Source of the DNA: Vampirovibrio chlorellavorus
Lineage (GTDB): Bacteria > Cyanobacteriota > Vampirovibrionia > Vampirovibrionales > Vampirovibrionaceae
Direction: 5' to 3'
DNA: 64,000 nt
Assembly: GCA_001858525.1 (NCBI GenBank)
Contig: LAPX01000001.1
Location: 161,473 to 225,472 of the forward strand
Part shown: positions 9,620-56,081 of the stretch, one piece after another
Layout: every line of letters begins with the position of its first letter
How positions within the stretch are numbered: the first letter of the stretch is position 1
The notes under the pieces: generated by a model
Databases searched by the model: none
The model's input: only the letters and a program-made list of their open reading frames with translations
What the model was told of the DNA's origin: nothing
Translations under genes and position numbers: made by a program

Positions 9620-10870
9620 ATGCCTCAAAAGCCCATCTATCATTACCCCGTCCGTCTAGGAGCGGCTTGCGCTATTTCGGTGATGGCCTTGTCCGCAGCC
9701 CCGGCCTTTGCCTATCAACTGGACGCCCCCAATCGAACCCTCAACGTGGCCCCCGGGGCCAGCCCCAATGAGACCACCAACGATCTCAAAGGTGCTTTCA
9801 ACTATCTCGTCAATCGCAGTGACAAAGCCAACCAGTGGACTGTAAAATTCGCTCCCGGCAACTACTATATTGTGAGCCAAATTCCCATTCGAAACCTGGA
9901 AAACACCGTATTACAAGGCGATCCCAATAAACCGGCCAAGCTGATTAAGGACAAAACCTTTAACAGCGCCACCGCCGGAGAGTATTTACTGAATTTTCAA
10001 TTCGGCAAAAAGCTTTCCATGAACGGGCTACAGTTTTACGGACAAACCAGTTTTGCCGCCAGCCTGGCACCGGTGTGGCCGGATCAAGGTGTCTATTTTG
10101 GCTCCTGTAATGGGGTAACCGTGCAAAAAAACAGCTTTTATAACTTTGGCAACGCCGCCCTGCGGGTCACCACCACCGAACGGGATCCGGTGCCCGGGGT
10201 AAACAGCTTTAATACCGTGGTGGCCAATAACCTGTTCAACAACATCTATCAGATTTCCACCACGCCCAACGATGAAATTCATGGCGGCAGCACCAATTAC
10301 GTTTTGCAAAACAACGTGTTCTACAACCTGCGAGGCTCCATTAAATTCGCCTCTCGCACCGCCGGGGCCAAAAACGTGAAGATCCTCAATAATAAGGTCA
10401 ACGGCGGCGATCACTACGCCTTTGAAATTAACAATTACGATGACATGGAAATTCGGGGCAACAGCCTGCAAAACCTCAAGGAATTTGCCATCAACATCTA
10501 CAACAATCCCCGGGCCAGCCAGTCCTTCAATTGGGGCAACAATTTCATCATCGCCGATAACCTGATTAATACGGTGGGCCGGGGGATTCGCTTTAGCACC
10601 GAGCCTTACGCCGATGGCACCCTAGTGACGCCCAGCAACGTCACGTTCACCAACAACAGTCTGGACAAAGTCACTGACACCAGCGGCCTGCCAGCCATCG
10701 CCCAGGTCAACGGCACCATCAAAGGGCTAACCATTACCAGCAATAAATTCAACAACATTACCAACAAAAAATACATTGGCTACAATGCGGCCTCCAGTAA
10801 CGTGACCTACTTTAACAATCAAGCTAACGGACAACCTTACGGACCGCAACAAAGTACGACCAGTAACTAG
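9620..10870 (+). CDS. secreted right-handed parallel beta-helix repeat protein (pectate-lyase-fold; possible adhesin or polysaccharide-active enzyme)
   Basis: Signal peptide AISVMALSAAPAFA; Asn-rich periodic repeats (NNxFxN..., VxNNxF) typical of PbH1 beta-helix. Confidence 0.75.
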   Translation: MPQKPIYHYPVRLGAACAISVMALSAAPAFAYQLDAPNRTLNVAPGASPNETTNDLKGAFNYLVNRSDKANQWTVKFAPGNYYIVSQIPIRNLENTVLQGDPNKPAKLIKDKTFNSATAGEYLLNFQFGKKLSMNGLQFYGQTSFAASLAPVWPDQGVYFGSCNGVTVQKNSFYNFGNAALRVTTTERDPVPGVNSFNTVVANNLFNNIYQISTTPNDEIHGGSTNYVLQNNVFYNLRGSIKFASRTAGAKNVKILNNKVNGGDHYAFEINNYDDMEIRGNSLQNLKEFAINIYNNPRASQSFNWGNNFIIADNLINTVGRGIRFSTEPYADGTLVTPSNVTFTNNSLDKVTDTSGLPAIAQVNGTIKGLTITSNKFNNITNKKYIGYNAASSNVTYFNNQANGQPYGPQQSTTSN

Positions 10871-10893
10871 GCAAAGCGATCTCACAACAACAG

Positions 10894-10932
10894 GCGGGCT
10901 GAGGAAGCCAGGGTTCCCTTAGCCCGCTTTTG
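10894..10932 (+). terminator. rho-independent terminator
   Basis: GCGGGCTGAGG ... CTTAGCCCGC stem followed by TTTT immediately after the beta-helix gene. Confidence 0.55.
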
Positions 10933-11161
10933 CTGGAAGGCTTTATAAGGCGGCCAGCACCTTCCTCACATGAGCTGGCTATGAAAGAATGAAAGATAAA
11001 GTGCCATCCTGCAAGCCCAGGTTGGTACACTATGTTAAGAAATATAAACATCATTTTCAGCCGCCTCCTCAAGTATTGGTTCAGTCTGCCGATACTGATA
11101 AAGGAAAGGGCTAGCCAAAATGGTACACTCGCGAATTCTCTCCAAGAGAAGGACAGCATGT

Positions 11162-11770
11162 ATGTTCTCCACCCTGCGGCCTCAGCATTACCATCCATTC
11201 GGATTTACCCTGGCCGAATTGTTGATTTCTTTAGCCATTTTGGGAGTGATTGCCACCTTCACCATCCCCAAAATTCTTTCAAGTCAGCAGGATTCCAAAT
11301 ACAGCGCCTCCGCCAAAGAAGTGGTCGCCATGTTTTCCGACGCTTACCAACAAGCAAAGTTTTCCAGTAGTAACGTGGCCAGTATCGCACCTGCCAACTT
11401 GTTTCAATACATGAACTATGTAAAAACTGACACCACCTCTTCTATTGATGGTCTTTACACGCAAGGCGTCTACGGTGTTAATTGCTCTCAAAGACCCTGT
11501 ATTCAGCTGCACAATGGTGGCATTGTGTTGGCCAGTCAATGGAATTTCGGGGGAACCGGCACCACCAACTCCATCAACTTTATTTACGACCCCGATGGAA
11601 AAGTAACCGATGGCACCACCACCGGGCCCGGTAAGTCCGTCATTTTTTACCTCTATGCCAACGGGAGAATCGTAACCAGCGCCAATGTTCTGCCCGGGAC
11701 CACCAATCAATCTGGCGGAACGTATTCGGCAAACGCCAACCTGGACCCGCCCTGGTTCAGCTGGAATTAG
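11162..11770 (+). CDS. type IV pilin-like protein (prepilin-type N-terminal cleavage/methylation domain), paralogue 1
   Basis: Leader ...HYHPFG|FTLAELLISLAILGVIATFTIPKIL with Glu+5; RBS GAAGGA before ATG 11162 (ORF opens at 11120); Cys pair mid-protein; C-terminal DPPWFSWN shared with paralogues. Confidence 0.8.
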   Translation: MFSTLRPQHYHPFGFTLAELLISLAILGVIATFTIPKILSSQQDSKYSASAKEVVAMFSDAYQQAKFSSSNVASIAPANLFQYMNYVKTDTTSSIDGLYTQGVYGVNCSQRPCIQLHNGGIVLASQWNFGGTGTTNSINFIYDPDGKVTDGTTTGPGKSVIFYLYANGRIVTSANVLPGTTNQSGGTYSANANLDPPWFSWN

Positions 11771-11888
11771 AATTGATTTTTACAATTCCAAAAATCACCC
11801 TCAAGTTTTGGGATACCCTGTCGATAAGCGTCGTAGGTCAATTTATAAAGCGCCAAGTTAGTGCAGTCCTTTTCAAGAGGTTTAACCC

Positions 11889-12524
11889 ATGTATGAGCAG
11901 ACAGACAGACAGACAGACAGACAGACACGCCAGCTTAAACAACTTAATCTGAGCTGGCAAGGCTTTACACTCGCTGAACTGCTCATTAGTCTAGCCATTC
12001 TGGGCGTCATCGCTACCTTTACCATTCCTAAAATCCTGAGCGCCAGCCAAAACGAGGCAAATGAGGCGAAAGTAAAAGAAGCCGCAGCAACCCTTTCAGC
12101 AGCGTATCAACAAGCCAAACTAGACGGGGTCATCAATAGCAATACCAAGGGCTCGGATCTCACCCCATACCTGAATTATCTGGCCTGGGATAACAATGGA
12201 ACCACGACTATCGATCACGGGCCTTGGTCCACTTTTCAAACTTGTAATATCACTTTTCCCTGCGTCAAACTCGCGAACGGAGCAACGATCCTGTTTGACG
12301 GGGCGCAATTTGGGGGCACGGCTACCACCAACATGATTGCTTTTTATGTAGACCCGGAACCCGGCTACTCAGGCACCACCAATCCCGTGCGTTCCGTTTC
12401 AATGGTACTTTATTATGATGGCTTTATAACATCCCGCGCATACACCCGAGCGAATAGCTTTACCTCCGCCGGGGGACCTTACGGCCCTGGCAGTTTTGAT
12501 CCACCCTGGTTTACCTGGAACTAG
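11889..12524 (+). CDS. type IV pilin-like protein, paralogue 2, with (CAGA)7 repeat in the leader-coding region
   Basis: MYEQTDRQTDRQTRQLKQLNLSWQG|FTLAELLISLAILGVIATFTIPKIL...DPPWFTWN; RBS AGAGG. Confidence 0.8.
   Translation: MYEQTDRQTDRQTRQLKQLNLSWQGFTLAELLISLAILGVIATFTIPKILSASQNEANEAKVKEAAATLSAAYQQAKLDGVINSNTKGSDLTPYLNYLAWDNNGTTTIDHGPWSTFQTCNITFPCVKLANGATILFDGAQFGGTATTNMIAFYVDPEPGYSGTTNPVRSVSMVLYYDGFITSRAYTRANSFTSAGGPYGPGSFDPPWFTWN
11898..11927 (+). repeat. tetranucleotide repeat (CAGA)7CA inside the 5' coding region of pilin paralogue 2
   Basis: Read directly: cagacagacagacagacagacagacaca, encoding QTDRQTDRQT. Confidence 0.95.
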
Positions 12525-12629
12525 GGCAAAAATACACTTTTTACTATGATTTGAGGCGTTTATTAAAGTTTTTGGATGATGGGTCGATACCAAGAATGTC
12601 TGGAACCTAGCAATCGAGGTCAGTTGGTT

Positions 12630-13297
12630 ATGTTTCTAGCCCCCCCCCCCCCCCCCCCCCCCCCCGAAAACGCCTAAAGTCAGTCCTGGGCTTTACACTC
12701 GCTGAATTGCTGATTTCTCTGGCCATATTAGGGGTGATTGCTACCTTTACCATCCCTAAAATTTTATCCACCCAGCAAAACGCTCAGAACGTTGCCAAGG
12801 CAAAAGAAGCAGCAGCAATGATTTCAGAGGCTTTTCAGAAAGCAAAACTGAATGGTGTTATTACTTCAGCTACCAAACCCTCTGATTTAGCTGCTTACAT
12901 GAATTACGTCAGTCTGGACACTTCTGGCACACTCATGGATCACGTACCAGGCGTTGGTTCCAGGCCTTGTAATAATACATATCCCTGTATAAAACTTCAT
13001 AATGGCGGTATACTAAGTTTTGATGATGGGGCTACCTTTGGCGGCACTTCCAGTTTACATGCAATGTTTATTCTTTTTGATCCAGACGGGATTTACAGTG
13101 GTTCCACCGCGGACGGGCCTTCTAAATCTGTGCAATTTGCTATTTATTACGATGGCTTCTTAACGACCAGGGGGATAGTCAAAACCGGTACTGTTTATAG
13201 CTTGGGATCTCTTTCACCTGCTCCTAGCGAAGATCCATCTTGGTTTAGCTGGCAAGAATCTGGCGTCAGTACCATTGAGCCCGTAAGGCAAGAATAG
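12630..13297 (+). CDS. type IV pilin-like protein, paralogue 3. Its 5' end contains a 26-nt poly-C tract; ATG 12630 is out of frame with the pilin body in this assembly (phase OFF, or a homopolymer length error)
   Basis: ATG at 12630 (MFLAPPPPPPPP...) reaches a stop; the pilin frame (…PPP RKRLKSVLG|FTLAELLISLAIL… DPSWFSWQ) has no in-frame ATG after the stop at 12608. C25 or C28 would restore frame. Confidence 0.6.
12640..12665 (+). repeat. homopolymeric poly-C tract (about 26 nt) in the leader-coding region of pilin paralogue 3
   Basis: Read directly from the sequence. Confidence 0.95.
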
Positions 13298-13334
13298 TAC
13301 AATGGCGGCGCAGTGTTAGAGGAGCCAGCCGCGC

Positions 13335-14183
13335 ATGAGCATGACCGAAACCATTCCCGCCGTTTTGCCACTGGAAGACGGGTTTACGGATGTGCTGGGC
13401 AAAGCCCGCAAAGGCCTCAAGCTCTCCACAGAAACGCTGGCGGAACGCACCGGTTTATCCGCTCCTCAGGTGGAAGCCGCTTTTCAAGGCCAGTTGGACG
13501 AATCGACCCTACTCAAACTGGCCTTCACCCTGAATTTGCATGGGCCTTCTTTAATCGCTCTGGCCAAAAACGAATGGCAGCCCAAGCGCTTTCCAGATCT
13601 GGATGGATTGCAGCAGTTCACCACCTGGTACGGGGACATGACCGTCAACGCATACTTGCTGTGGGATACCGCCACCAAAGAAGCAGCCACCTTCGATACC
13701 GGGGCCAACTGTCAGAATATACTGGATTTCATCGAGTGTAACGGACTCTCCCTGAAAAAAATATTCATCACCCACACCCACATGGATCATCTGGCCGATC
13801 TAGAGCGTTTGGCCGGCAAGCATCCCACCGCCGTCTGTTACGGGTCCGCCGTGGATAACCCCTTGGGCCTCAAGCCGCTGATTGAGGGAGATGGGTTGAT
13901 TGTGGGCAATCTGAGCATTCGGGTACTGGGCACTTCTGGGCACACCCCGGGGGGCCTGAGCTACCGGGTTGAGGGACTGAGCCAGCCCGTGGTGGTGGTG
14001 GGCGACGCCCTGTTTGCCAGCTCTATGGGAGGGGCCCCCTACGCCTATCAGGAGGCCCGCAGTAATAACCTGAACAAACTTCTGACCTTGCCGGAGCAGA
14101 CCATTATCTGTCCCGGCCATGGCCCCATGACCACGGTGGGCGAAGAAAAAGCCCACAACCCGTTTTTCCCGGAAACCAAATAG
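13335..14183 (+). CDS. MBL-fold metallo-hydrolase with N-terminal HTH domain
   Basis: THTHMDH (HxHxDH) metallo-beta-lactamase motif plus downstream His/Asp ligands; N-terminal LSTETLAERTGLSAPQV helix-turn-helix. Confidence 0.8.
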   Translation: MSMTETIPAVLPLEDGFTDVLGKARKGLKLSTETLAERTGLSAPQVEAAFQGQLDESTLLKLAFTLNLHGPSLIALAKNEWQPKRFPDLDGLQQFTTWYGDMTVNAYLLWDTATKEAATFDTGANCQNILDFIECNGLSLKKIFITHTHMDHLADLERLAGKHPTAVCYGSAVDNPLGLKPLIEGDGLIVGNLSIRVLGTSGHTPGGLSYRVEGLSQPVVVVGDALFASSMGGAPYAYQEARSNNLNKLLTLPEQTIICPGHGPMTTVGEEKAHNPFFPETK

Positions 14184-14230
14184 ACCGGGCAATCAATTTT
14201 TACTATTTTGCAGCAGGGGAGATCACGCTG

Positions 14231-15139
14231 ATGACGCTTCAAAAGATTGGAATCGTTGGGGTGGGCCGCATGGGCTCCAACATGGCCCGACGCCTCAAAG
14301 AGCAAGGCTTTACCATTGCCGCCGTCTACGATGTGCAAACGGCCCTGACCGAGGAAATCGCCCAGGAGCTTTCTGCCACGGCCTGCCAAAGCCTCTCTGA
14401 GGTGACCCGCCTGTCGGACGCCATTATTACCGTGGTGAGCGATGATGCCGCCATGCGCTTTATCTTCCACAATCCCGATGATCATTTGTTGATGAATGCC
14501 ACAGGCAAGTTGTTCATCAACTGCGCTACCATTAGCCCGGAAGTGCATATTGCCTTGCATGCTCAGGCCTCAAAAGTTGGCGCTAAAACTCTGGAATGCC
14601 CCATGGCCTCCAGCATCAGCCAGGCCCGCACCGGCACCTTGTACCTGATGTGCGCAGGCGATGAAACGGTTTACCTGGAAGCCCAACCCCTGCTCAAGGC
14701 CCTGAGCGTCTCCAGTATTTACACGGGTGAACCCGGCACAGCGGCCCAGCTAAAGGCCCTGGTCAACATGGTCATGAACATCAACACCGCAGGCTTGGCG
14801 GAAGGCTTGGGGCTGGCGGATTCTCTGGGACTGGATCTCAATCTGGTGCGCCAAGTCTTTTCGCAAACCGGAGCCAATTCAAGGGTGCTGGAAACCGACG
14901 GCGAAGACATGCAAAATCGGGAGCACGACACTTATTTTTCAGCGGCCCACGCGGCCAAGGACAGCAGCATTGCCCTGTCCCTGGGACAGGCCTATGGCTT
15001 GCATTTGCCCATGGCGGAGGCCGCCAAACAACAGTACGAGCGCATGATTGCGCTGGGCCTGGGAGACTTGGACAAGTCCGGCGTCTCCGAATTAACCTTT
15101 CGGGACCGCTTGCAGGAAAGAACCCAGACCCCGGTTTAG
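14231..15139 (+). CDS. NAD(P)-dependent oxidoreductase, 3-hydroxyisobutyrate dehydrogenase/6PGDH-NAD-binding family
   Basis: N-terminal Rossmann motif IGIVGVGRMGSNMARRL; family-typical length and C-terminal domain. Confidence 0.85.
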   Translation: MTLQKIGIVGVGRMGSNMARRLKEQGFTIAAVYDVQTALTEEIAQELSATACQSLSEVTRLSDAIITVVSDDAAMRFIFHNPDDHLLMNATGKLFINCATISPEVHIALHAQASKVGAKTLECPMASSISQARTGTLYLMCAGDETVYLEAQPLLKALSVSSIYTGEPGTAAQLKALVNMVMNINTAGLAEGLGLADSLGLDLNLVRQVFSQTGANSRVLETDGEDMQNREHDTYFSAAHAAKDSSIALSLGQAYGLHLPMAEAAKQQYERMIALGLGDLDKSGVSELTFRDRLQERTQTPV

Positions 15140-39282: not shown

Positions 39283-40203
39283 ATGCCCAATCATCCCGGT
39301 CAATCGAGATTACATCGCCGTGCTTGGGGAAATGTAACGCCCGAGTATGCCCTGATTGGTGCGATTGTTCTCGGCGCGTCCTGTGTGGCCTTGGCCAATA
39401 TTGGAGATACGGTCTCCATTCTGTTTAATAATATGCTGGGCACCAAGCCAAAGCAAACCACTGAAGTCACCGCGCCGCCAACAGGCAACGGGCAAGTTAA
39501 TCCTCCCCCTCAGCAAGGTGCAGGGGTGCGCATCACCCTCTCTGATGGGACCATCATCCACTTACCGGAATACCCGCAGGATCTCACCTCATTAATCAGC
39601 ACGGCAGGGGCAAATGGAGCCACCGATGTACTGGCCAACACCATCAAAGTACTGGCCCAACAATTGCTGGATAGTGGCGCCATTACAAAGGCAGAATTCA
39701 ATAACCTGATTGCTATGTCCAACCAGGGTCACCGCATTGCCAATGTTCAAAAAGCCATTGAATCCGTGGCCCAAAATTCGAGCAGTCCCTCAGAGTTTAG
39801 TTCCAGTATGTTTGAGTTCGATGGGAACACATACAGTCTGGATGAAATCACTGCGCTCATTGGTTTCGATAACGATTCCATGGATCCCAACGCGGTTGTG
39901 GATCACCTAACCGACCCCACAGCCAGCCCCGAAATCAGTGCTTTTCAAAATCTTTTCGCAAAAGCACTGCAGACCGGCGCGTTGGATGATCCAGTGCTCC
40001 GGGATGTGGTTCAGACCTTATCAGAACAAATTCTGTCATTAAGCGACCTGACTAACATTGCAGCCTACAATATTGCAGATTACTCAGCACCTCCAAGCAG
40101 TATGACTCAGAATATAACAAGCAATTTAACCGATCAAAAAGCGGCTGGAATCTGTGGTGCCGGGGCCGGTGTGGATTCCGGAGTGCAATGCTCAGCCACC
40201 TGA
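39283..40203 (+). CDS. large Flp/Tad-type pilin-like protein, copy 1 (class III signal peptide plus ~270-aa C-terminal domain with terminal Cys-Cys loop)
   Basis: Leader MPNHPGQSRLHRRAWG|NVTPEYALIGAIVLG matches the Flp G|xxxxEY(G/A)(L/I)I motif; conserved mid-region NQGHRIANVQKAIE; C-terminal C-GAGAGVDSGVQ-C. Confidence 0.7.
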   Translation: MPNHPGQSRLHRRAWGNVTPEYALIGAIVLGASCVALANIGDTVSILFNNMLGTKPKQTTEVTAPPTGNGQVNPPPQQGAGVRITLSDGTIIHLPEYPQDLTSLISTAGANGATDVLANTIKVLAQQLLDSGAITKAEFNNLIAMSNQGHRIANVQKAIESVAQNSSSPSEFSSSMFEFDGNTYSLDEITALIGFDNDSMDPNAVVDHLTDPTASPEISAFQNLFAKALQTGALDDPVLRDVVQTLSEQILSLSDLTNIAAYNIADYSAPPSSMTQNITSNLTDQKAAGICGAGAGVDSGVQCSAT

Positions 40204-40352: not shown

Positions 40353-40640
40353 AGATTTGAGAAAAACCGTCGAAAAAAAGCTAAAGATTAGGATTTACCA
40401 ACTTTAACCATCATTTACTTTATCAGGAGAACCTTATGCGGCGTAAATACCCAGGCAGACCATACCGAACCGCCACTGTGGGGAATACTCTAACAGAATA
40501 TGGAATTATCGGTTTCATTGTCTTGGGGCTTAGCTGGTTGGCACTCAGCAACATGGGGGACTTTGTCTCTACCCTGTTCAAAAATATGTTGGGACAAAAA
40601 CCATCGCCAACGGCACAAGTCGCTGCACCACCGTCTTCAG
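40353..40640 (+). repeat. direct repeat A (~290 bp): conserved promoter, 5'UTR, leader and N-terminal coding module of Flp-like copy 2
   Basis: About 95% nucleotide identity to 41456..41741 (GAAAAACCGTCGAAAAAAAGCTAAAGATTAGGATTTACCAACTTTAACCA...ATCAGGAGAACCTTATG...); similarity ends abruptly after ...GCTGCACCACCGTC. Confidence 0.8.
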
Positions 40641-41356
40641 TAAGCCCTCCCACGGATACTGAGGGGCCACTGACCAGTGATGTACAAGTGACCTTAGGCA
40701 ATGGCACTACCCTGGATCTGTCAAGCTACCCCCTGGATTTTACAGAATCTGTTGTCACATCAGGCGCCAACGGAACTACCAACCTGCTCGCCAATACCCT
40801 TAAATCTCTTTCTCAACAACTCCTGGAAAAAGGAGAAATCAACCAAGATCAGTTCAACACACTAATCGCCCTGGCCAATCAAGGGCACCGGATGGCAAAG
40901 ATCCAAAAAGTCATTGAGACAATGGCCTTGAACTCAACTAGCTCCAATAAATATTACAACAGTGTTTTTAATTTTGATGGACAGACTTATACCGTAGATG
41001 AAATCAGTATGATGATAGGGTTTGACTATGATGATCCCTCTTCAATTTCAGACCCTTTAACGGATCCAAACGGTGGTGCAGAAGTCATAGAATACCAAAT
41101 GCTTTTTCAACAGGCAGTCAACAGCGGCGCCTTAAATGATCCGACTTTAAATCAAGTCATACGAACATTATCATCCCAAATCATATCGTTATCGGCTTTA
41201 ACCGAACATGCCTCTTACAATATCGCTATTATTGGAGATCCCCCAGACAGTATAAGAGAAAATATTACCAGTAATTTAAACAATAAAAACGCAGCCGGGA
41301 TCTGCGGGGCAGGCAACGGTGTGGATAATGGAGTCCAGTGTGCGTCAGGCGGCTAG
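40436..41356 (+). CDS. large Flp/Tad-type pilin-like protein, copy 2
   Basis: MRRKYPGRPYRTATVG|NTLTEYGIIGFIVLG; conserved NQGHRMAKIQKVIE; C-terminal C-GAGNGVDNGVQ-C; RBS CAGGAGAA. Confidence 0.7.
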   Translation: MRRKYPGRPYRTATVGNTLTEYGIIGFIVLGLSWLALSNMGDFVSTLFKNMLGQKPSPTAQVAAPPSSVSPPTDTEGPLTSDVQVTLGNGTTLDLSSYPLDFTESVVTSGANGTTNLLANTLKSLSQQLLEKGEINQDQFNTLIALANQGHRMAKIQKVIETMALNSTSSNKYYNSVFNFDGQTYTVDEISMMIGFDYDDPSSISDPLTDPNGGAEVIEYQMLFQQAVNSGALNDPTLNQVIRTLSSQIISLSALTEHASYNIAIIGDPPDSIRENITSNLNNKNAAGICGAGNGVDNGVQCASGG

Positions 41357-41455: not shown

Positions 41456-41741
41456 CAGATTAAAGAAAAACCGTCGAAAAAAAGCTAAAGATTAGGATTT
41501 ACCAACTTTAACCAATGCTCACTGTATCAGGAGAACCTTATGTAGCGTAAATACCGAGGCAAAACGTACCGAACCACCACTGTGGGGAATTCCCTAACAG
41601 AATATGGAATCATCGGTCTCATTGTCTTGGGGCTTAGCTGGTTGGCACTCAGCAACATGGGGGACTTTGTCTCCACCCTGTTCAAAAACATGTTGGGAGA
41701 AAAACCATCGTCAACGGCACAAGTCGCTGCACCACCGTCCT
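41456..41741 (+). repeat. direct repeat B (~290 bp): 5' module of Flp-like copy 3, near-identical to repeat A
   Basis: See 40353..40640. Confidence 0.8.
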
Positions 41742-42460
41742 CAGGCGCAGGTATCAACACCCCTGACGCACTCACGAATAACCTGAACGATGGAAGCTTA
41801 CTTGAAATTGGATTAAGTAAAAGGTTGCAAACGTTAGGGGCAAACGGTGCAACTTCTACTCTGGCAAACGAATTGATAAGAGTGGCAGAGGAGGCCTTGG
41901 CTACTGAAAAAATCAATCAAGAGCAGTATGATATTTTGATACAGCTTGCTAATCAAGGTCACAGAATGGCTGACATTCAGTTTATGATTGAGAATGCCAT
42001 TGAACTTTCTAATGGGAATTATAATGAATTTAGTTCGAGTGAAGTTACCTGGGATGGGCGTACTTATACGGTATTAGAACTCTCTAAGATGTTAGGTCAT
42101 GATGGCTCGCCTAATATTTACACATCAGAAGGAAATATTTTAGAAGATCTATCTTCTATGAAAAACAGTGCCGTAGATCCTGAACTGGCTGCATTTATAA
42201 ATCTGTATAAGCAAGCACTGGATAGCGGCGCTCTATCGGATCCTTTGGTGAGCTCCACCGTGGAAAGCGCAGCCACTCAGATTGCAAGTATTGGGGAAAT
42301 TGTACAGCATTCTATTTATGAATTTTCAGAAGGTGATGTTAACACCGTTTCCGAGTTTAAGGATAACCAGGTTTCCATTGCAACAGATATGGAGTCTTCT
42401 AATATTTGCAAGGCTGGAGATTACGACGACAGTGGCGTTTACTGTTCACCCAAGAATTAG
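41582..42460 (+). CDS. large Flp/Tad-type pilin-like protein, copy 3. The ancestral start ATG at 41537 is followed immediately by TAG, so the ORF can only initiate at GTG 41582 (leader reduced to about 2 aa). Possible pseudogene or silent cassette
   Basis: atgTAGcgtaaatac... vs copy 2 atgCGGcgtaaatac...; downstream frame encodes ...TTTVG|NSLTEYGIIGLIVLG, NQGHRMADIQFMIE, C-terminal C-KAGDYDDSGVY-C. Confidence 0.55.
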   Translation: MGNSLTEYGIIGLIVLGLSWLALSNMGDFVSTLFKNMLGEKPSSTAQVAAPPSSGAGINTPDALTNNLNDGSLLEIGLSKRLQTLGANGATSTLANELIRVAEEALATEKINQEQYDILIQLANQGHRMADIQFMIENAIELSNGNYNEFSSSEVTWDGRTYTVLELSKMLGHDGSPNIYTSEGNILEDLSSMKNSAVDPELAAFINLYKQALDSGALSDPLVSSTVESAATQIASIGEIVQHSIYEFSEGDVNTVSEFKDNQVSIATDMESSNICKAGDYDDSGVYCSPKN

Positions 42461-52056: not shown

Positions 52057-53151
52057 ATGGTAACGACAACTCTAAACAGCATTACCTTGCCGTCCAAACG
52101 GTCCACAGGGAAAACTCTACCTGTGCGCTTTGGTTCCGGCAGCGCCATCCTGGCCAAAACGGCCGGGCCAGAGGTTCAGCATGAAGCCGTGGTACGCGGA
52201 TACCGTTTTGCCAGCTTCATCAAAAACCGCCTGCTGGGTGGAAAGCTGTTTAATAATGATATCCGTTGGGGCGGTTTATCCCTGGAGGATATGGCCAGTC
52301 GGGTACAAACCCTGTTGGGCGTTTATCTGCTGCAAGGCTACTACGCCATTAAAGACGACAAACACCCTTGGGAAACCAATGGCCGGAACGCTGTTATCTG
52401 GGTGATGACCCTGTTGCTGCAAAACCTGGCCAAAAGTGAGAATTACGGGGTCAATACCCTGCTCTTCAACCCGTTTATGCGGCAAAAAGGATACCTCTCC
52501 TCAGAAATGTCCGGGCTGCAAAAATTCCTCGATCGCGGCCGCATGGACGTGGATTATCTGGATATCCTGCAAGATGCCGGCATTAAAATCAGTGATGACG
52601 AGCTAAAGGGCGCCCGAAAGGGTAAAAAAGCCTTGTGGGCCTCCTCTTGGCTGGACGCTAACAAGACGGATATCATTAAAAAACGATATCGGGACCTCCA
52701 TCAAAAGATACAGGAAAACGCCAAAGCCCTGGCCGACAAAAAGCCCATTCCCCATATCCTGACCCCTCTGGAAAAAGCCATAGAAAAAGAGATTCCCCGG
52801 TTTTTTAAACGAATAAATGGCTGGAACATGGCATCCACAGGGCTAGTCGTCGGAGCCACCATATATTTCATTGGCGGGGTGGCCATGGATATCGTCAACA
52901 AAGTCATCTCTCCCCTGGACAAAGACTTTGAAGGCAACAAGAACCTACCCCCCGACCAAATTCTTAAAAATCCCATCCTGGCCAAAACCCACCCGCCTCA
53001 GAGTACCCTCACCAACACCCCGTTTTCACCCACCACTACCAGTAGCATCACCACACCGCCAATCCAATTTTTTCAGAGTTATGTGAGTCACCGTCGTCAT
53101 AGCACCCCATCTACCCTTCCCGGCTCTAGTCTTCCCGGAGGGCTTGGTTGA
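52057..53151 (+). CDS. hypothetical alpha-helical protein with C-terminal hydrophobic segment and S/T/P-rich tail (first gene of a coupled pair behind an AT-rich island)
   Basis: 364-aa ORF, K/E-rich coiled-coil-like; TM-like GLVVGATIYFIGGVAM; stop TGA overlaps the next start (TGATG). Confidence 0.55.
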   Translation: MVTTTLNSITLPSKRSTGKTLPVRFGSGSAILAKTAGPEVQHEAVVRGYRFASFIKNRLLGGKLFNNDIRWGGLSLEDMASRVQTLLGVYLLQGYYAIKDDKHPWETNGRNAVIWVMTLLLQNLAKSENYGVNTLLFNPFMRQKGYLSSEMSGLQKFLDRGRMDVDYLDILQDAGIKISDDELKGARKGKKALWASSWLDANKTDIIKKRYRDLHQKIQENAKALADKKPIPHILTPLEKAIEKEIPRFFKRINGWNMASTGLVVGATIYFIGGVAMDIVNKVISPLDKDFEGNKNLPPDQILKNPILAKTHPPQSTLTNTPFSPTTTSSITTPPIQFFQSYVSHRRHSTPSTLPGSSLPGGLG

Positions 53152-56081
53152 TGGGCATGCTTCCAATGGCTATGCAGCTGAACCCCTGGGCACAACGAGC
53201 GCTGGCTCAGTCAGTGAACCTGGGCTACGCTGGACGGGGCACCTATCGGGTTCATGAAACCAACCCGGAGCGCAAAGGGGATTATTGGTTTCGGGACTTT
53301 GGCATGGTCATGGCTTGCACCTACATGACCGAAATGGGCTTCCGGGGAACCGAACGCTTTTACACCATGCCCTTGTTGACCAACGCCCTGGAGCTTCAGG
53401 CCCTCAGAACCGAGCTTGGCCAAAAGCGGGTTATCCCCACCTTTGATACAGTGCAAATAAAAAATGGCGCACGCACAGACTCTGTCCAGTTGCTCAATTC
53501 CAAGCCCCTGTATCCACGGGCCTGGAACTATTCCGAGTTGCCCGAAGCGCTGCGTGAGAAGATGATGGGCACCCTGATCCGCAACAGTTCCGAGCTGGTG
53601 CCCCAAGTGTTGCAGGAAGAAGCCCTGAATGAAATCAGGGCGCTAGAAATCAAGGCGTTAAAAGAAAAGGCGTTAAAAGAAAAGAATCCCCCGCCTTATA
53701 AAAGCTTGAAACAGCTCATCACCCATCCGCTCAACCCGGATAATGGCAACTTGGTGGAAGCGTTCATCGAAAAAACCGCCGGACTCAGCAGCCATCGGGC
53801 CGAGTTGGAACGCATCGCCAAAATTGACAACAAAGCCACGGCCGAGGCGGAAACCCAAAAACTCTTTCAGAAACTATCCGCCACCCACACGGACAAAGAA
53901 ACGCTGAAGGCCCACATTCAGCAATCCGTGCAACTGCTCAAAACCGAGCAGTTGGGCATTCTGATCAACCATCTGGATCGCAACCTGAACTTTCAGCATT
54001 ATTTGGAAAGCAACTTTTTAAAACCCAAAGCAGAAGTCCTCAAGCCCAAGGGCGCCATTGAGCCTCGTTACTTCAAGTTGCCGGAAGCTTTGGCCCCGCG
54101 TAACCCCTTTAGCGCCGTGGATGAAATATCCGGCATTGTGTCCGATCGGATGCGCTTTTACATTGATAAACTCAATAGCCTACAGCACCAGGGAAAAGCC
54201 GATTTACGCAGCCTGGCCGAAAAAGTCCGGAGGCTGCCTCTGGATCAGCGGGAAAAAGCCTTCACCAAAGGTATTCAGGAAATCGAAAACCTGCAGTTTC
54301 TGTACAAAAAACAATCTCTGACCGACCACTGGCATGCCTCCACCAGCAAAGATATTTTGAAACTGATGGAAGAAGAGAAGTTAGATACTAACGCGGCGCA
54401 GGATCTCATCAAACAGGAAAACCTGGAGCGACAAACAATCCTGCAAGGCATTCAAAAAAGTAAAAAGCAGCTTGGCAACCAGGATCAAAAGCTAAAGTGT
54501 CTGGAAGAATGGGCCGACAACAACCACAATTATCTGCTGAACTGGGAAAACGAATTCCGCATTGAAAAAGACCGGCTTCAGGCTTTTCTGACCAAACCCA
54601 CCGAGCGGGCCCACAAGCCCAAGGGATACATTTCCATGAACCAGCTGAACACCCAGCTAGGGCATTTTGAAGGCTGGTTTGAAACGATCTCCAAAAGCCT
54701 GCAAGTCCGAAACGCCATTTTGGACAACTTGTGGCAGCACTTGGGCGAGGATTTGCTGCTGCAAGTGAAGAAAAAAGTAAAAACCGCCTTTGAAGACGTC
54801 AACAAACTCTCCTACGAGCACTTACCCCTCTATACCGAAGGTCCGCTGAAAGGCCAACCGGTGGAGAAAGGGAAACTGCTAGAAGCCCGATTACAAGATA
54901 TTGGCCTGCGGCACTGGCTGGATGATAGCGAAATCAAGCATTTAAGTGAAGATTTGGCCCAGCATTTACCAAAAATGTCCAGTACCACTGAGACCGCCAA
55001 AGACCTTGAGCAGCACAGCGTGGAATCAGTCATGGGCAAGGTCAAAAAGACCATTTGGGCTCACCTGACCGGTGATGTGGATTACAACAACCTGAACGAT
55101 TCGTTCTGTAAAAACTTAAAAGCCCAAGTGGATGCCAAACTGAACGCGCTGAGCCCAGAACAGCAAACCACGCTGAAGGCCGGAAAAATACGGGGCAAGC
55201 TGTTCAGTCAGCTTACCAACACCGATGCCTTCGGCAACCCGCTCTCCAATCAGTACGAAGAGGGCATGGAAACCCTGCTGAAAAAAATCCTGAACGAAGC
55301 AAACCTGCACGTTGTTAAGAATCAGAGCGGTCACGAGGTTAAAAGTGCGGAGTGGACGGTTAAAAGCCTGATTACTGATGGCTTGCAAAGCCATATGGTC
55401 AAGTCCGCGGTGGATAAGATTCAGAAAAACGGCACCTGGCCCAAAATTCTGGCCACCGTGGGGCTTAACTTCGTCTTCTACGGATGGCTGGCCAGCCGCT
55501 TTGACAATAAAGTTCTGCAACCCTACCAGGAAAAGCTGGTGGCTGAAAAAGGAACCGCTCAGGATATCGTCAATGCCGGCTATCTGGGTACCTTGCCCGC
55601 CGTTGCTATTCTCTCCCAGGCCTGGGACAAAACCACCTTGCCAATGCTCAACGGCCTGAGACGTATGAACCACTTCAGCCGCTTTGCCTCCGTGGGTGGC
55701 GTAGCGCTGGGCGTGTTTGCAGCCTCTTCCTATGGATTCCTGAAAGTTTTGGAAAAAAAGTCAGCCCCCCAACCCGGATATCCCAAAAAGCAACCCCCTG
55801 CGGTGACACCAAACACCCAGCCATCCGTGCAACCAACCTTTAACGCCCTATCAAAGCCCGCCATTACGCCGCCTGCATCCAGTCTGGATAGCCCCTTCAG
55901 TAATCGAAGCCAGTTGAACGGCCTACCCTTTCAAAGTTATCGTCCTCAGGCCACCGCGTTCAACCAGCCGCAAAAGCGTCCCGTACTGAATCGATCCAGT
56001 GCCGGGCCGACTTTTCTATTTCCACCCTGCTTTCAAGGACAACCCTTTCCTGTAAAGCAACCGCTGCCTAAGGCTGAGTAG
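53151..56081 (+). CDS. large hypothetical coiled-coil protein (976 aa) with bilobed C-terminal hydrophobic region and Pro/Gln-rich tail
   Basis: Long K/E/Q/L-rich helical sequence (e.g. EIKALKEKALKEKNPPP); hydrophobic ILATVGLNFVFYGWLA and FASVGGVALGVFAASSYGF near the C-terminus; no enzymatic motif; ATG at 53151 (ORF track starts at TTG 53148). Confidence 0.6.
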   Translation: MGMLPMAMQLNPWAQRALAQSVNLGYAGRGTYRVHETNPERKGDYWFRDFGMVMACTYMTEMGFRGTERFYTMPLLTNALELQALRTELGQKRVIPTFDTVQIKNGARTDSVQLLNSKPLYPRAWNYSELPEALREKMMGTLIRNSSELVPQVLQEEALNEIRALEIKALKEKALKEKNPPPYKSLKQLITHPLNPDNGNLVEAFIEKTAGLSSHRAELERIAKIDNKATAEAETQKLFQKLSATHTDKETLKAHIQQSVQLLKTEQLGILINHLDRNLNFQHYLESNFLKPKAEVLKPKGAIEPRYFKLPEALAPRNPFSAVDEISGIVSDRMRFYIDKLNSLQHQGKADLRSLAEKVRRLPLDQREKAFTKGIQEIENLQFLYKKQSLTDHWHASTSKDILKLMEEEKLDTNAAQDLIKQENLERQTILQGIQKSKKQLGNQDQKLKCLEEWADNNHNYLLNWENEFRIEKDRLQAFLTKPTERAHKPKGYISMNQLNTQLGHFEGWFETISKSLQVRNAILDNLWQHLGEDLLLQVKKKVKTAFEDVNKLSYEHLPLYTEGPLKGQPVEKGKLLEARLQDIGLRHWLDDSEIKHLSEDLAQHLPKMSSTTETAKDLEQHSVESVMGKVKKTIWAHLTGDVDYNNLNDSFCKNLKAQVDAKLNALSPEQQTTLKAGKIRGKLFSQLTNTDAFGNPLSNQYEEGMETLLKKILNEANLHVVKNQSGHEVKSAEWTVKSLITDGLQSHMVKSAVDKIQKNGTWPKILATVGLNFVFYGWLASRFDNKVLQPYQEKLVAEKGTAQDIVNAGYLGTLPAVAILSQAWDKTTLPMLNGLRRMNHFSRFASVGGVALGVFAASSYGFLKVLEKKSAPQPGYPKKQPPAVTPNTQPSVQPTFNALSKPAITPPASSLDSPFSNRSQLNGLPFQSYRPQATAFNQPQKRPVLNRSSAGPTFLFPPCFQGQPFPVKQPLPKAE

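Follow-up and report, generated by a model that had tools for sequence, protein, structure and literature searches.

Putative repeat-switched pilin-like genes with FliA-type promoter motifs in a tandem array of a Vampirovibrio species

Phase variation by means of repeats is known mainly from bacteria that are adapted to a host, among them Neisseria, Haemophilus and Campylobacter. Here, three tandem genes for pilin-like proteins (g1, g2 and g3), two of which carry repeat tracts in their leader-coding parts, are described on the plus strand of a 64,000-nt stretch of DNA deposited under the name Vampirovibrio chlorellavorus (assembly GCA_001858525.1, contig LAPX01000001.1, positions 161,473 to 225,472), hereafter called the window. 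A similar arrangement is found in the opa genes of Neisseria, scattered multi-copy genes for surface proteins with CTCTT repeats between the start codon and the signal-peptide cleavage site, where slipped-strand mispairing shifts the frame and each copy switches independently (PMC3960869). The products differ: Opa proteins are beta-barrels of the outer membrane and have Sec signal peptides, and the genes described here encode pilin-like proteins with class III prepilin leaders. Unlike opa, the Vampirovibrio family furthermore shows three repeat types, about 10% repeat-bearing copies and a FliA-like promoter, and its switching is deduced from sequence. In functional terms, the opa family is nevertheless the closest counterpart of the array.

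The other close case is pilC of Neisseria, for which Jonsson et al. reportedly described in 1991 that a homopolymer in the leader region turns piliation ON and OFF. As in pilC, where poly-G is located in the signal-peptide coding region, the homopolymer considered here belongs to the part of a pilus gene that encodes the leader; PilC, however, is a tip adhesin and assembly factor encoded in one or two copies, in contrast to the pilin subunits and the large repertoire considered here. With the pilE/pilS system of Neisseria the array shares a constant N-terminal helix, a variable exposed head and, as outcome, a changing pilus surface. In pilE/pilS this is achieved by gene conversion between one expression locus and silent partial cassettes, whereas g1, g2 and g3 are complete paralogues with their own promoter motif and start. 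A flagellar sigma-factor motif ahead of pilin genes in a predatory bacterium is known from Bdellovibrio, where TTAAG-N16-CCGATA marks the FliA-dependent attack-phase regulon, to which the Tad pilin operon required in predation belongs (PMC3627812, PMC5430801). Bdellovibrio belongs to another phylum, and its pilins are small Flp (type IVc) proteins encoded in a tad operon without repeat switches; for Vampirovibrio the link to FliA is drawn from the motif. In a literature search, phase variation, repeat tracts or pilin expansion in Vampirovibrio or Melainabacteria were not mentioned beyond the gene table of PMC4451040.

Taken as a whole, the data make it fairly probable that the three genes are part of a FliA-driven, phase-variable pilin repertoire of independently transcribed paralogues. 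Tandem Repeats Finder (TRF) reported only two short-unit arrays scoring at least 50 in the whole window, (CAGA)7.5 and C26, and both lie between a start codon preceded by a Shine-Dalgarno sequence and the G|F cleavage site, the former in g2 and the latter in g3. A frame-shifting tract in the 5' part of the reading frame, as found in both genes, is a feature of contingency loci. The g2 array is in frame (ON), and gain or loss of one CAGA unit shifts the frame. In g3, a GAGG Shine-Dalgarno sequence is located 10 nt before the ATG at 12630. Across the 26-nt poly-C, this ATG is offset from the pilin frame by one base (OFF as assembled) and reads MFLA-P8-ENA-stop (12630 to 12677), while the pilin frame has no ATG, GTG or TTG 5' of the cleavage site. 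With 27 or 24 C the product would be MFLA-Pn-RKRLKSVLG|F..., with a mature part of 201 amino acids and, at 27 C, a leader of 21. Since the homologue P0047 has a g3-type leader (MFLCPPPPRKRLKITRG|F) that is translated in frame through a shorter tract, the ATG at 12630 is considered the real start of g3. A homologue search with the ON version of g3 gave a best match of 66% identity and no close orthologue, and exact-protein look-ups of P0001 and P0047 returned no record.

The tracts might tune expression rather than switch it, via transcriptional slippage on poly-C, ribosome stalling at poly-proline (elongation factor P, EF-P) or coupling to a short upstream open reading frame (ORF), with graded or leaky expression as a result, irrespective of tract length in the DNA. 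Runs of 26 identical bases suffice for RNA-polymerase slippage and eight to nine consecutive prolines stall ribosomes; in addition, relatives with long leaders have a Met 3' of the tract, and two genes are recorded in the internal-start form only. Such tuning is inapplicable to tetranucleotide and heptanucleotide repeats, and in g2, g3 and the related locus L017 no in-frame start is located between tract and cleavage site, for which reason the length of the DNA tract must matter in these genes. We regard tuning as improbable.

The window and 88 related loci (1.36 Mb in total) were scanned for repeats; 79 of these loci were taken from species-representative genomes and added to those obtained earlier. 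The pilin leader zone, defined as the 200 nt upstream of a pilin cleavage motif, makes up 1.6% of the scanned sequence and contained 10 of the 16 repeats (binomial P about 8e-15) and 9 of the 13 C/G runs of at least 9 nt (P about 5e-14); A/T runs, which served as negative control, were not enriched. Repeats are about 40-fold concentrated in pilin leaders, and such a non-random association with one gene class is again a feature of contingency loci. Three unrelated repeat types were found at this one position, namely poly-C (window g3, L011, L017, L018, L020, L026 and L032), AGAC/CAGA (window g2 and L072) and the heptamer TCAAGCC (L080, 11.9 units). The leader in L072, ATGTATGA-(AGAC)13.2, has the same start as that of g2 and is out of frame. 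Two of the ten tracts are in frame (window g2 and L020), which is roughly the proportion expected if frames are random; seven leave the first start codon out of frame (g3, L011, L017, L018, L026, L072 and L080), and the tract in L032 is located upstream of the start codon. Several poly-C genes share the conserved module AGGAGCGGTTTA-ATG/GTG-(G)TA-Cn-GAAATC. An N-terminus of the form M-x-PPP(P)-K/R was seen in 12 of 304 annotated family proteins, and one of the 304 has a 4-aa repeat. In L080, which stems from a Lake Mendota Vampirovibrionales metagenome-assembled genome (MAG), a C16 tract (9963 to 9978) was also seen without a recognisable pilin motif nearby; it is situated inside or ahead of an ORF of unassigned function and may be another contingency locus.

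A difference in tract length was found between two independent assemblies of one related locus. Over 6739 bp, L011 (NCBI) and L089 (ENA) differ by a single mismatch and a single gap (99.97% identity), and the gap is the poly-C tract of the pilin gene adjoining the P0029 gene. With C11, L089 encodes a full prepilin of 243 amino acids (ON), while C12 in L011 leads to a frameshift (OFF). The protein collection holds the 243-aa form on five contigs and a form starting at an internal Met on three, which equals the eight contigs carrying P0029. The difference fits what phase variation predicts; homopolymer assembly error is the obvious alternative.

Several observations weigh against a switched pilin repertoire. 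About 90% of the family, including g1 and the V. chlorellavorus orthologues of g2, carry no repeat. The species of the window is present once in the sequence collections, and the tract lengths are those of the assembly consensus. As assemblies do not give the length of a 26-nt homopolymer reliably, an error in sequencing or in the consensus could account for the OFF state of g3. The C11/C12 polymorphism concerns a homopolymer as well and was found in a relative rather than in the window. The genes in L018 and L026 are recorded only as forms called from the internal Met, the ON forms predicted for L017, L018 and L026 were not found in the protein collection, and in the long-leader class the internal Met could bypass the tract. 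Metagenome scans with a C11-N15-45-pilin motif and an (AGAC)4-N20-50-pilin motif gave zero matches each. At the protein level, the AlphaFold2 (AF2) model of g2 (pLDDT 89.7) consists of a helix (residues 28 to 78) and a beta-rich head, and the head has no significant Foldseek match among solved pilins.

Alternatively, the genes might be static paralogues, expressed constitutively, with neutral low-complexity insertions in the leader or assembly artefacts as repeats and g3 as a pseudogene. Besides the many repeat-free members, the error-prone homopolymer lengths and the empty metagenome scans, it speaks for this explanation that g3 is missing in any form from the protein collection, i.e. was not called by annotators. 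It is nonetheless unlikely in view of the concentration of repeats in pilin leaders and the occurrence of three independent repeat types at the same position. The tracts are contig-internal, with flanks conserved in independent MAGs, and the tract in L011/L089 is the only indel in 6.7 kb between two assemblies. Apart from its tract, g3 is intact: it retains an open 222-codon frame, every family-invariant residue, the Shine-Dalgarno sequence, the start codon and the promoter motif.

The switched repertoire is also suggested by the regions upstream of the three genes, an alignment of which revealed the sigma-28 (FliA)-type pattern T[CA]AAGT[AT]T-N11-G[CT]CGATA ahead of each of them (Table 1). 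It has exactly three matches in the window, all 5' of the pilin genes, compared to 0.04 expected; the pattern was derived from these same three sites. An independent scan of all loci used the canonical FliA consensus TAAAGTTT-N11-GCCGATAA, with up to three mismatches and a required CGATA core. Here, 47 of the 72 non-redundant sites had a same-strand pilin motif fewer than 400 nt downstream, several of these sites being perfect matches; the window sites (11069, 11801 and 12564) have two to three mismatches to this consensus. Two other sites precede Flagellin_N/C genes in L052 (V. chlorellavorus Vc_AZ_2, QFWI01000031.1). The motif is found at a suitable distance upstream of the pilin genes and also at flagellin genes of the lineage, as expected for a sigma-28 regulon. 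Based on the motif, we infer that FliA transcribes the pilin family along with the motility programme and that every gene uses a promoter of its own. A scan of the window for sigma-70 promoters and terminators yielded results at or below chance and was uninformative.

In L052, the two sites (minus strand, 610 and 1971) belong to two tandem flagellin genes, each located 187 to 200 nt downstream of its sigma-28-like motif. Conserved proteins without Pfam match, for example MTFFQND... in both L062 and L017, are also encoded behind sigma-28-like sites, and the regulon may include them.

Table 1. Coordinates of the pilin-like genes, their putative control elements and the preceding gene in the 64-kb window.
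Feature	Position	Strand	Details
Secreted right-handed beta-helix protein	9620..10870	+	416 aa; Pfam Beta_helix 33 bits
g1 sigma-28 (FliA)-type motif	11069..11094	+	TCAAGTAT-N11-GCCGATA
g1 prepilin	11162..11770	+	14-aa leader MFSTLRPQHYHPFG|F; mature 188 aa; no repeat tract
g1 conserved 27-codon segment	11201..11281	+	
g2 sigma-28-type motif	11801..11826	+	TCAAGTTT-N11-GTCGATA
g2 prepilin	11889..12524	+	25-aa leader MYEQTDRQTDRQTRQLKQLNLSWQG|F; mature 186 aa
(CAGA)7.5 tetranucleotide repeat, g2 leader	11898..11927	+	TRF; in frame (ON)
g2 conserved 27-codon segment	11961..12041	+	
g3 sigma-28-type motif	12564..12589	+	TAAAGTTT-N11-GTCGATA
g3 prepilin gene with frameshifted leader	12630..13297	+	pilin frame open 12611-13297
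C26 homopolymer, g3 leader, candidate ON/OFF switch	12640..12665	+	TRF
g3 conserved 27-codon segment	12689..12769	+	
g3 C-terminal extension	13253..13297	+	QESGVSTIEPVRQE + stop; alignment with relatives

All three proteins have a class III prepilin signal with G-1, F+1 and E+5, followed by about 20 hydrophobic residues. The Pfam and NCBIfam models recognise the prepilin N-terminal cleavage/methylation motif alone: TIGR02532 matches all three genes above its cut-off of 16.3 (22.3 to 27.2 bits), and PF07963 exceeds its cut-off of 21.2 in g2 (24.8 bits) and g3 (22.9 bits) but not in g1 (20.6 bits). More specific models (GspG, GspH, ComG and Myxococcus PilA) gave alignments restricted to the helix, with scores far below the cut-offs. 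A profile built from 119 family members likewise matches solved type IV pilins over the N-terminal helix only.

According to sequence searches, the trio belongs to a large and diverse type IV pilin-like family specific to Vampirovibrionales. The family has 1181 matches in a 90%-clustered protein collection, and 617 of 1.84 billion 50%-identity cluster representatives match at E<=1e-30. Its named sources are almost all Vampirovibrio or Vampirovibrionales, and single MAGs supply 6 to 10 or more of the 80 loci kept. The conserved N-terminal segment is nearly invariant across the 119 homologues and is therefore not special to g1, g2 and g3; as a family trait it would be expected if the paralogues have to fit one assembly machine and one filament core. 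Many of the loci (L025, L027, L034, L035, L038 and others) come from MAGs labelled as Coleofasciculaceae or Oculatellaceae cyanobacterium and one from a MAG labelled 'Candidatus Doudnabacteria', and the family member P0101, encoded on a contig of 273 kb, carries the source label 'Microcystis phage MaAM05'. The phage, cyanobacterial and Doudnabacteria labels probably reflect mis-binned or mislabelled Vampirovibrionales DNA.

A subclass of the family (L011 around 8576 to 9330, L018 from about 10625, L026 from about 9865 and L032 from about 9900; P0029, P0031, P0040, P0070 and P0248) has a conserved 'leader' of 40 to 57 amino acids with the pattern ...M.LWLACCSSLCLKPSPWL.EKA.R.LGWLPSACH.RA..G|FTL and conserved cysteines, unusually long and conserved for a prepilin. 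Its genes often have ATG-(G)TA-polyC ahead, and the internal Met may act as alternative start.

The class of the proteins was less clear than assumed in the preliminary description, which had termed them type IVa. Like type IVa major pilins (PilA of P. aeruginosa, PilE), they have G-1, F+1 (also present in nearly the whole family), E+5 and a long hydrophobic N-terminal helix, and the AF2 model of g2 suggests a lollipop shape of helix and beta head. Type IVa pilins, however, have leaders of 5 to 10 amino acids (5 to 7 in the major pilins), mature proteins of about 140 to 160 (typically around 150) and a C-terminal disulfide loop as D-region; the trio has leaders of 14, 25 and 21 amino acids, mature parts of 188, 186 and 201 and an invariant C-x4/5-C pair in the middle of the head. 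This head lacks a significant match to solved pilins in sequence as well as in structure, unlike the helix, which matches type IV pilins. The leaders had been given as 14 to 25 amino acids long; the 21 residues of g3 presuppose 27 C, its assembled form having no in-frame start. Their length had been taken as reminiscent of type IVb or type II secretion system (T2SS)-like systems, a view that was not supported: the leaders of the family have a median of 11 amino acids (range 3 to 68), the pseudopilin models are far below cut-off, and translation of the repeat accounts for part of the leader length in g2 and g3. Type IVb pilins have leaders of 15 to 30 amino acids, mature parts of about 180 to 200, usually a residue other than Phe at +1 and a gene within a dedicated pilus operon. 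The size and two of the three leaders would fit, but position +1 is Phe and no pilus operon was seen around the genes in the window.

An alternative identity would be that of pseudopilins or minor pilins of a T2SS- or competence-like machine rather than surface pilus subunits. Relatives are annotated by NCBI as 'type II secretion system protein' or 'FimT family', and ComGE and GspG, aligned over the N-terminal helix, are the best partial NCBIfam matches. All equivalog models are far below their cut-offs, however, including GspG (TIGR01710, 28.1 to 33.6 bits compared to 88.85). Neither pil or gsp machinery genes nor com genes were found within the 64 kb, and T2SS pseudopilins in a gsp operon, an outcome for which the preliminary description had allowed, were rejected on that account. 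Dozens of scattered copies per genome and 617 clusters are also unlike a fixed set of five pseudopilins. The genome of V. chlorellavorus lists about 36 'prepilin-type' genes besides a prepilin peptidase (pulO), pilB, pilC, pilT, a secretin (pulD) and pilN (PMC4451040, Table S3), and pili were observed on its cells by electron microscopy (PMC4451040). We consider the pseudopilin identity very improbable and infer that the proteins are assembled into pili.

The 27 residues GFTLAELLISLAILGVIATFTIPKILS, i.e. the segment G|FTLAELLISLAILGVIATFTIPKILS from G-1 to S26, are identical in g1, g2 and g3, whereas the proteins as a whole share 45 to 55% amino acid sequence identity. The corresponding 81 nt are 72%, 80% and 79% identical in pairwise comparisons, with 10 to 15 third-position differences per pair and, in addition, switches between Leu and Ser codon families. 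Over the whole genes (Nei-Gojobori), pS is saturated at 0.73 to 0.84, its Jukes-Cantor (JC) correction being undefined for two of the three gene pairs, and pN is 0.33 to 0.41. The preliminary description had recognised the identical N-termini and the saturated synonymous divergence, and the pS and pN values bear out its conclusion that the genes are old paralogues with strong purifying selection on the N-terminal helix and not recent duplicates. The C-terminal motif that it had given, D-P-(P/S)-W-F-(S/T)-W-(N/Q), is present in all three proteins (DPPWFSWN, DPPWFTWN and DPSWFSWQ). A cysteine pair in the middle of the head, the sole one, was likewise found, with the spacing C-x4-C in g1 and C-x5-C in g2 and g3 instead of the five to six residues stated. 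The leader repeats, the frameshift in g3, the FliA-type promoter motifs and the mosaic origin of the array had been overlooked.

The likely start of g1 is at 11162, which is that of the NCBI product P0172; in the orthologous leader of the V. chlorellavorus locus L007, start codon and Shine-Dalgarno sequence align with it. An alternative ATG at 11120 results in a leader of 28 amino acids. The g3 protein has a 13-residue C-terminal extension because the ancestral stop codon (TAA, TAG or TGA in relatives) is replaced by CAA, so that the ORF runs into the conserved 3' flank. The extension terminates within a sigma-70-like element, TTGAGC-17-TACAAT, upstream of the gene following g3.

The syntenic locus in three V. 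chlorellavorus-type genomes contains one pilin gene only, and comparison with it indicates a composite array. Window positions 9601 to 11272 are colinear with L007 (6438 to 8111) from the beta-helix gene over the intergenic region and the leader to the conserved helix segment, and the colinear stretch ends where this segment ends in g1. The body of g2 (11961 to 12518) is orthologous to that of the single pilin (75 to 80% amino acid sequence identity), and the last codons of g3 and the region onward (13232 to 14300) are orthologous to the 3' end and flank of the single gene. In other words, the ancestral promoter, leader and helix now lead into the g1 body, the ancestral body persists as that of g2 behind a new leader that carries a repeat, and the ancestral 3' flank is found after g3. 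This comparison shows the array to be a mosaic, joined on one side at the conserved 5' helix-coding segment and on the other at the conserved 3' gene end and flank, which implies that paralogues recombined at their short conserved ends. Either two paralogue bodies with leaders were recombined into the locus, or a three-gene array was reduced to one gene in the V. chlorellavorus lineage, through recombination between such short conserved segments. Because g2 resembles its V. chlorellavorus orthologue more closely than it resembles g1 or g3, recent tandem duplication was rejected. A silent-cassette system of the pilE/pilS type was rejected as well: the window contains only three copies of the motif, all in complete genes, and no silent cassettes were seen in it. 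The shared 81 nt are, moreover, only 72 to 80% identical.

A switched repertoire could operate as follows. Each gene would be transcribed from its own sigma-28-type promoter together with a motility or 'attack' programme. The reading frame would be altered by slipped-strand mispairing, at the (CAGA)n array for g2 and at the poly-C run for g3, and both genes might flip stochastically and reversibly between ON and OFF; the tract positions suggest such switching for g2 and g3 themselves. The assembly would represent a state with g2 ON, g3 OFF and g1 without a switch. A clonal population would then present differing pilin heads on one filament core, which might, speculatively, serve prey attachment or the evasion of pilus-specific phages, and paralogue recombination at the conserved ends would also reshuffle leaders and bodies. 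More tentatively, and with some doubt on our part, Vampirovibrionales in general might keep dozens of complete pilin genes with a shared helix and FliA promoter, a subset of them switched by repeats and their leaders and bodies reshuffled by recombination, as a combinatorial lottery of pilus surfaces for bet-hedging in prey recognition or phage evasion. With it, a contingency-locus system would for the first time be described from an algal predator or from the phylum of the cyanobacteria. If the switching of g2 and g3 is true, contingency loci would extend to predator-prey interactions and to the phylum Cyanobacteriota, and would act on a structural subunit of the pilus in a free-living predator of green algae. 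V. chlorellavorus is a pest of Chlorella cultures, and a variable attachment organelle could affect its prey range as well as predator control by phages or resistant algae. The FliA-type promoters would offer a testable link between motility and pilin expression, in parallel to Bdellovibrio.

The trio is located between the gene of the beta-helix protein and a gene encoding a protein with metallo-beta-lactamase (MBL) fold (13335 to 14183). The beta-helix gene adjoins the single orthologous pilin gene in the V. chlorellavorus loci L001, L005 and L007, with 88 to 90% amino acid sequence identity of its product. Its suggested role as an associated adhesin was overstated; adjacency in congeneric genomes, where the whole region is syntenic, is what might tie it functionally to the pilins, and it is treated here as context. 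Because the flanking proteins are 85 to 93% identical to those of V. chlorellavorus (Tex 92 to 93%, MBL 85 to 87%), the organism of the window is, as judged from these proteins, a species congeneric with V. chlorellavorus.

An Rfam scan of the window gave a tRNA-Val as sole match. For two plus-strand ORFs with overlapping ends (52057 to 56081), which encode 364 and 977 aa, Pfam gave no match at E<=0.001. Another three tandem paralogues are encoded on the plus strand by ORFs 39283 to 40203, 40436 to 41356 and 41582 to 42460, in a stretch of low GC content (44 to 46%); the proteins (306, 306 and 292 aa) are 37 to 52% identical to each other and lack a Pfam match. Their N-termini, G|NVTPEYALIGAIVLG, G|NTLTEYGIIGFIVLG and G|NSLTEYGIIGLIVLG, appear to resemble the Flp/Tad-type prepilin motif G-x4-EY, and the proteins are about five times longer than Flp pilins.

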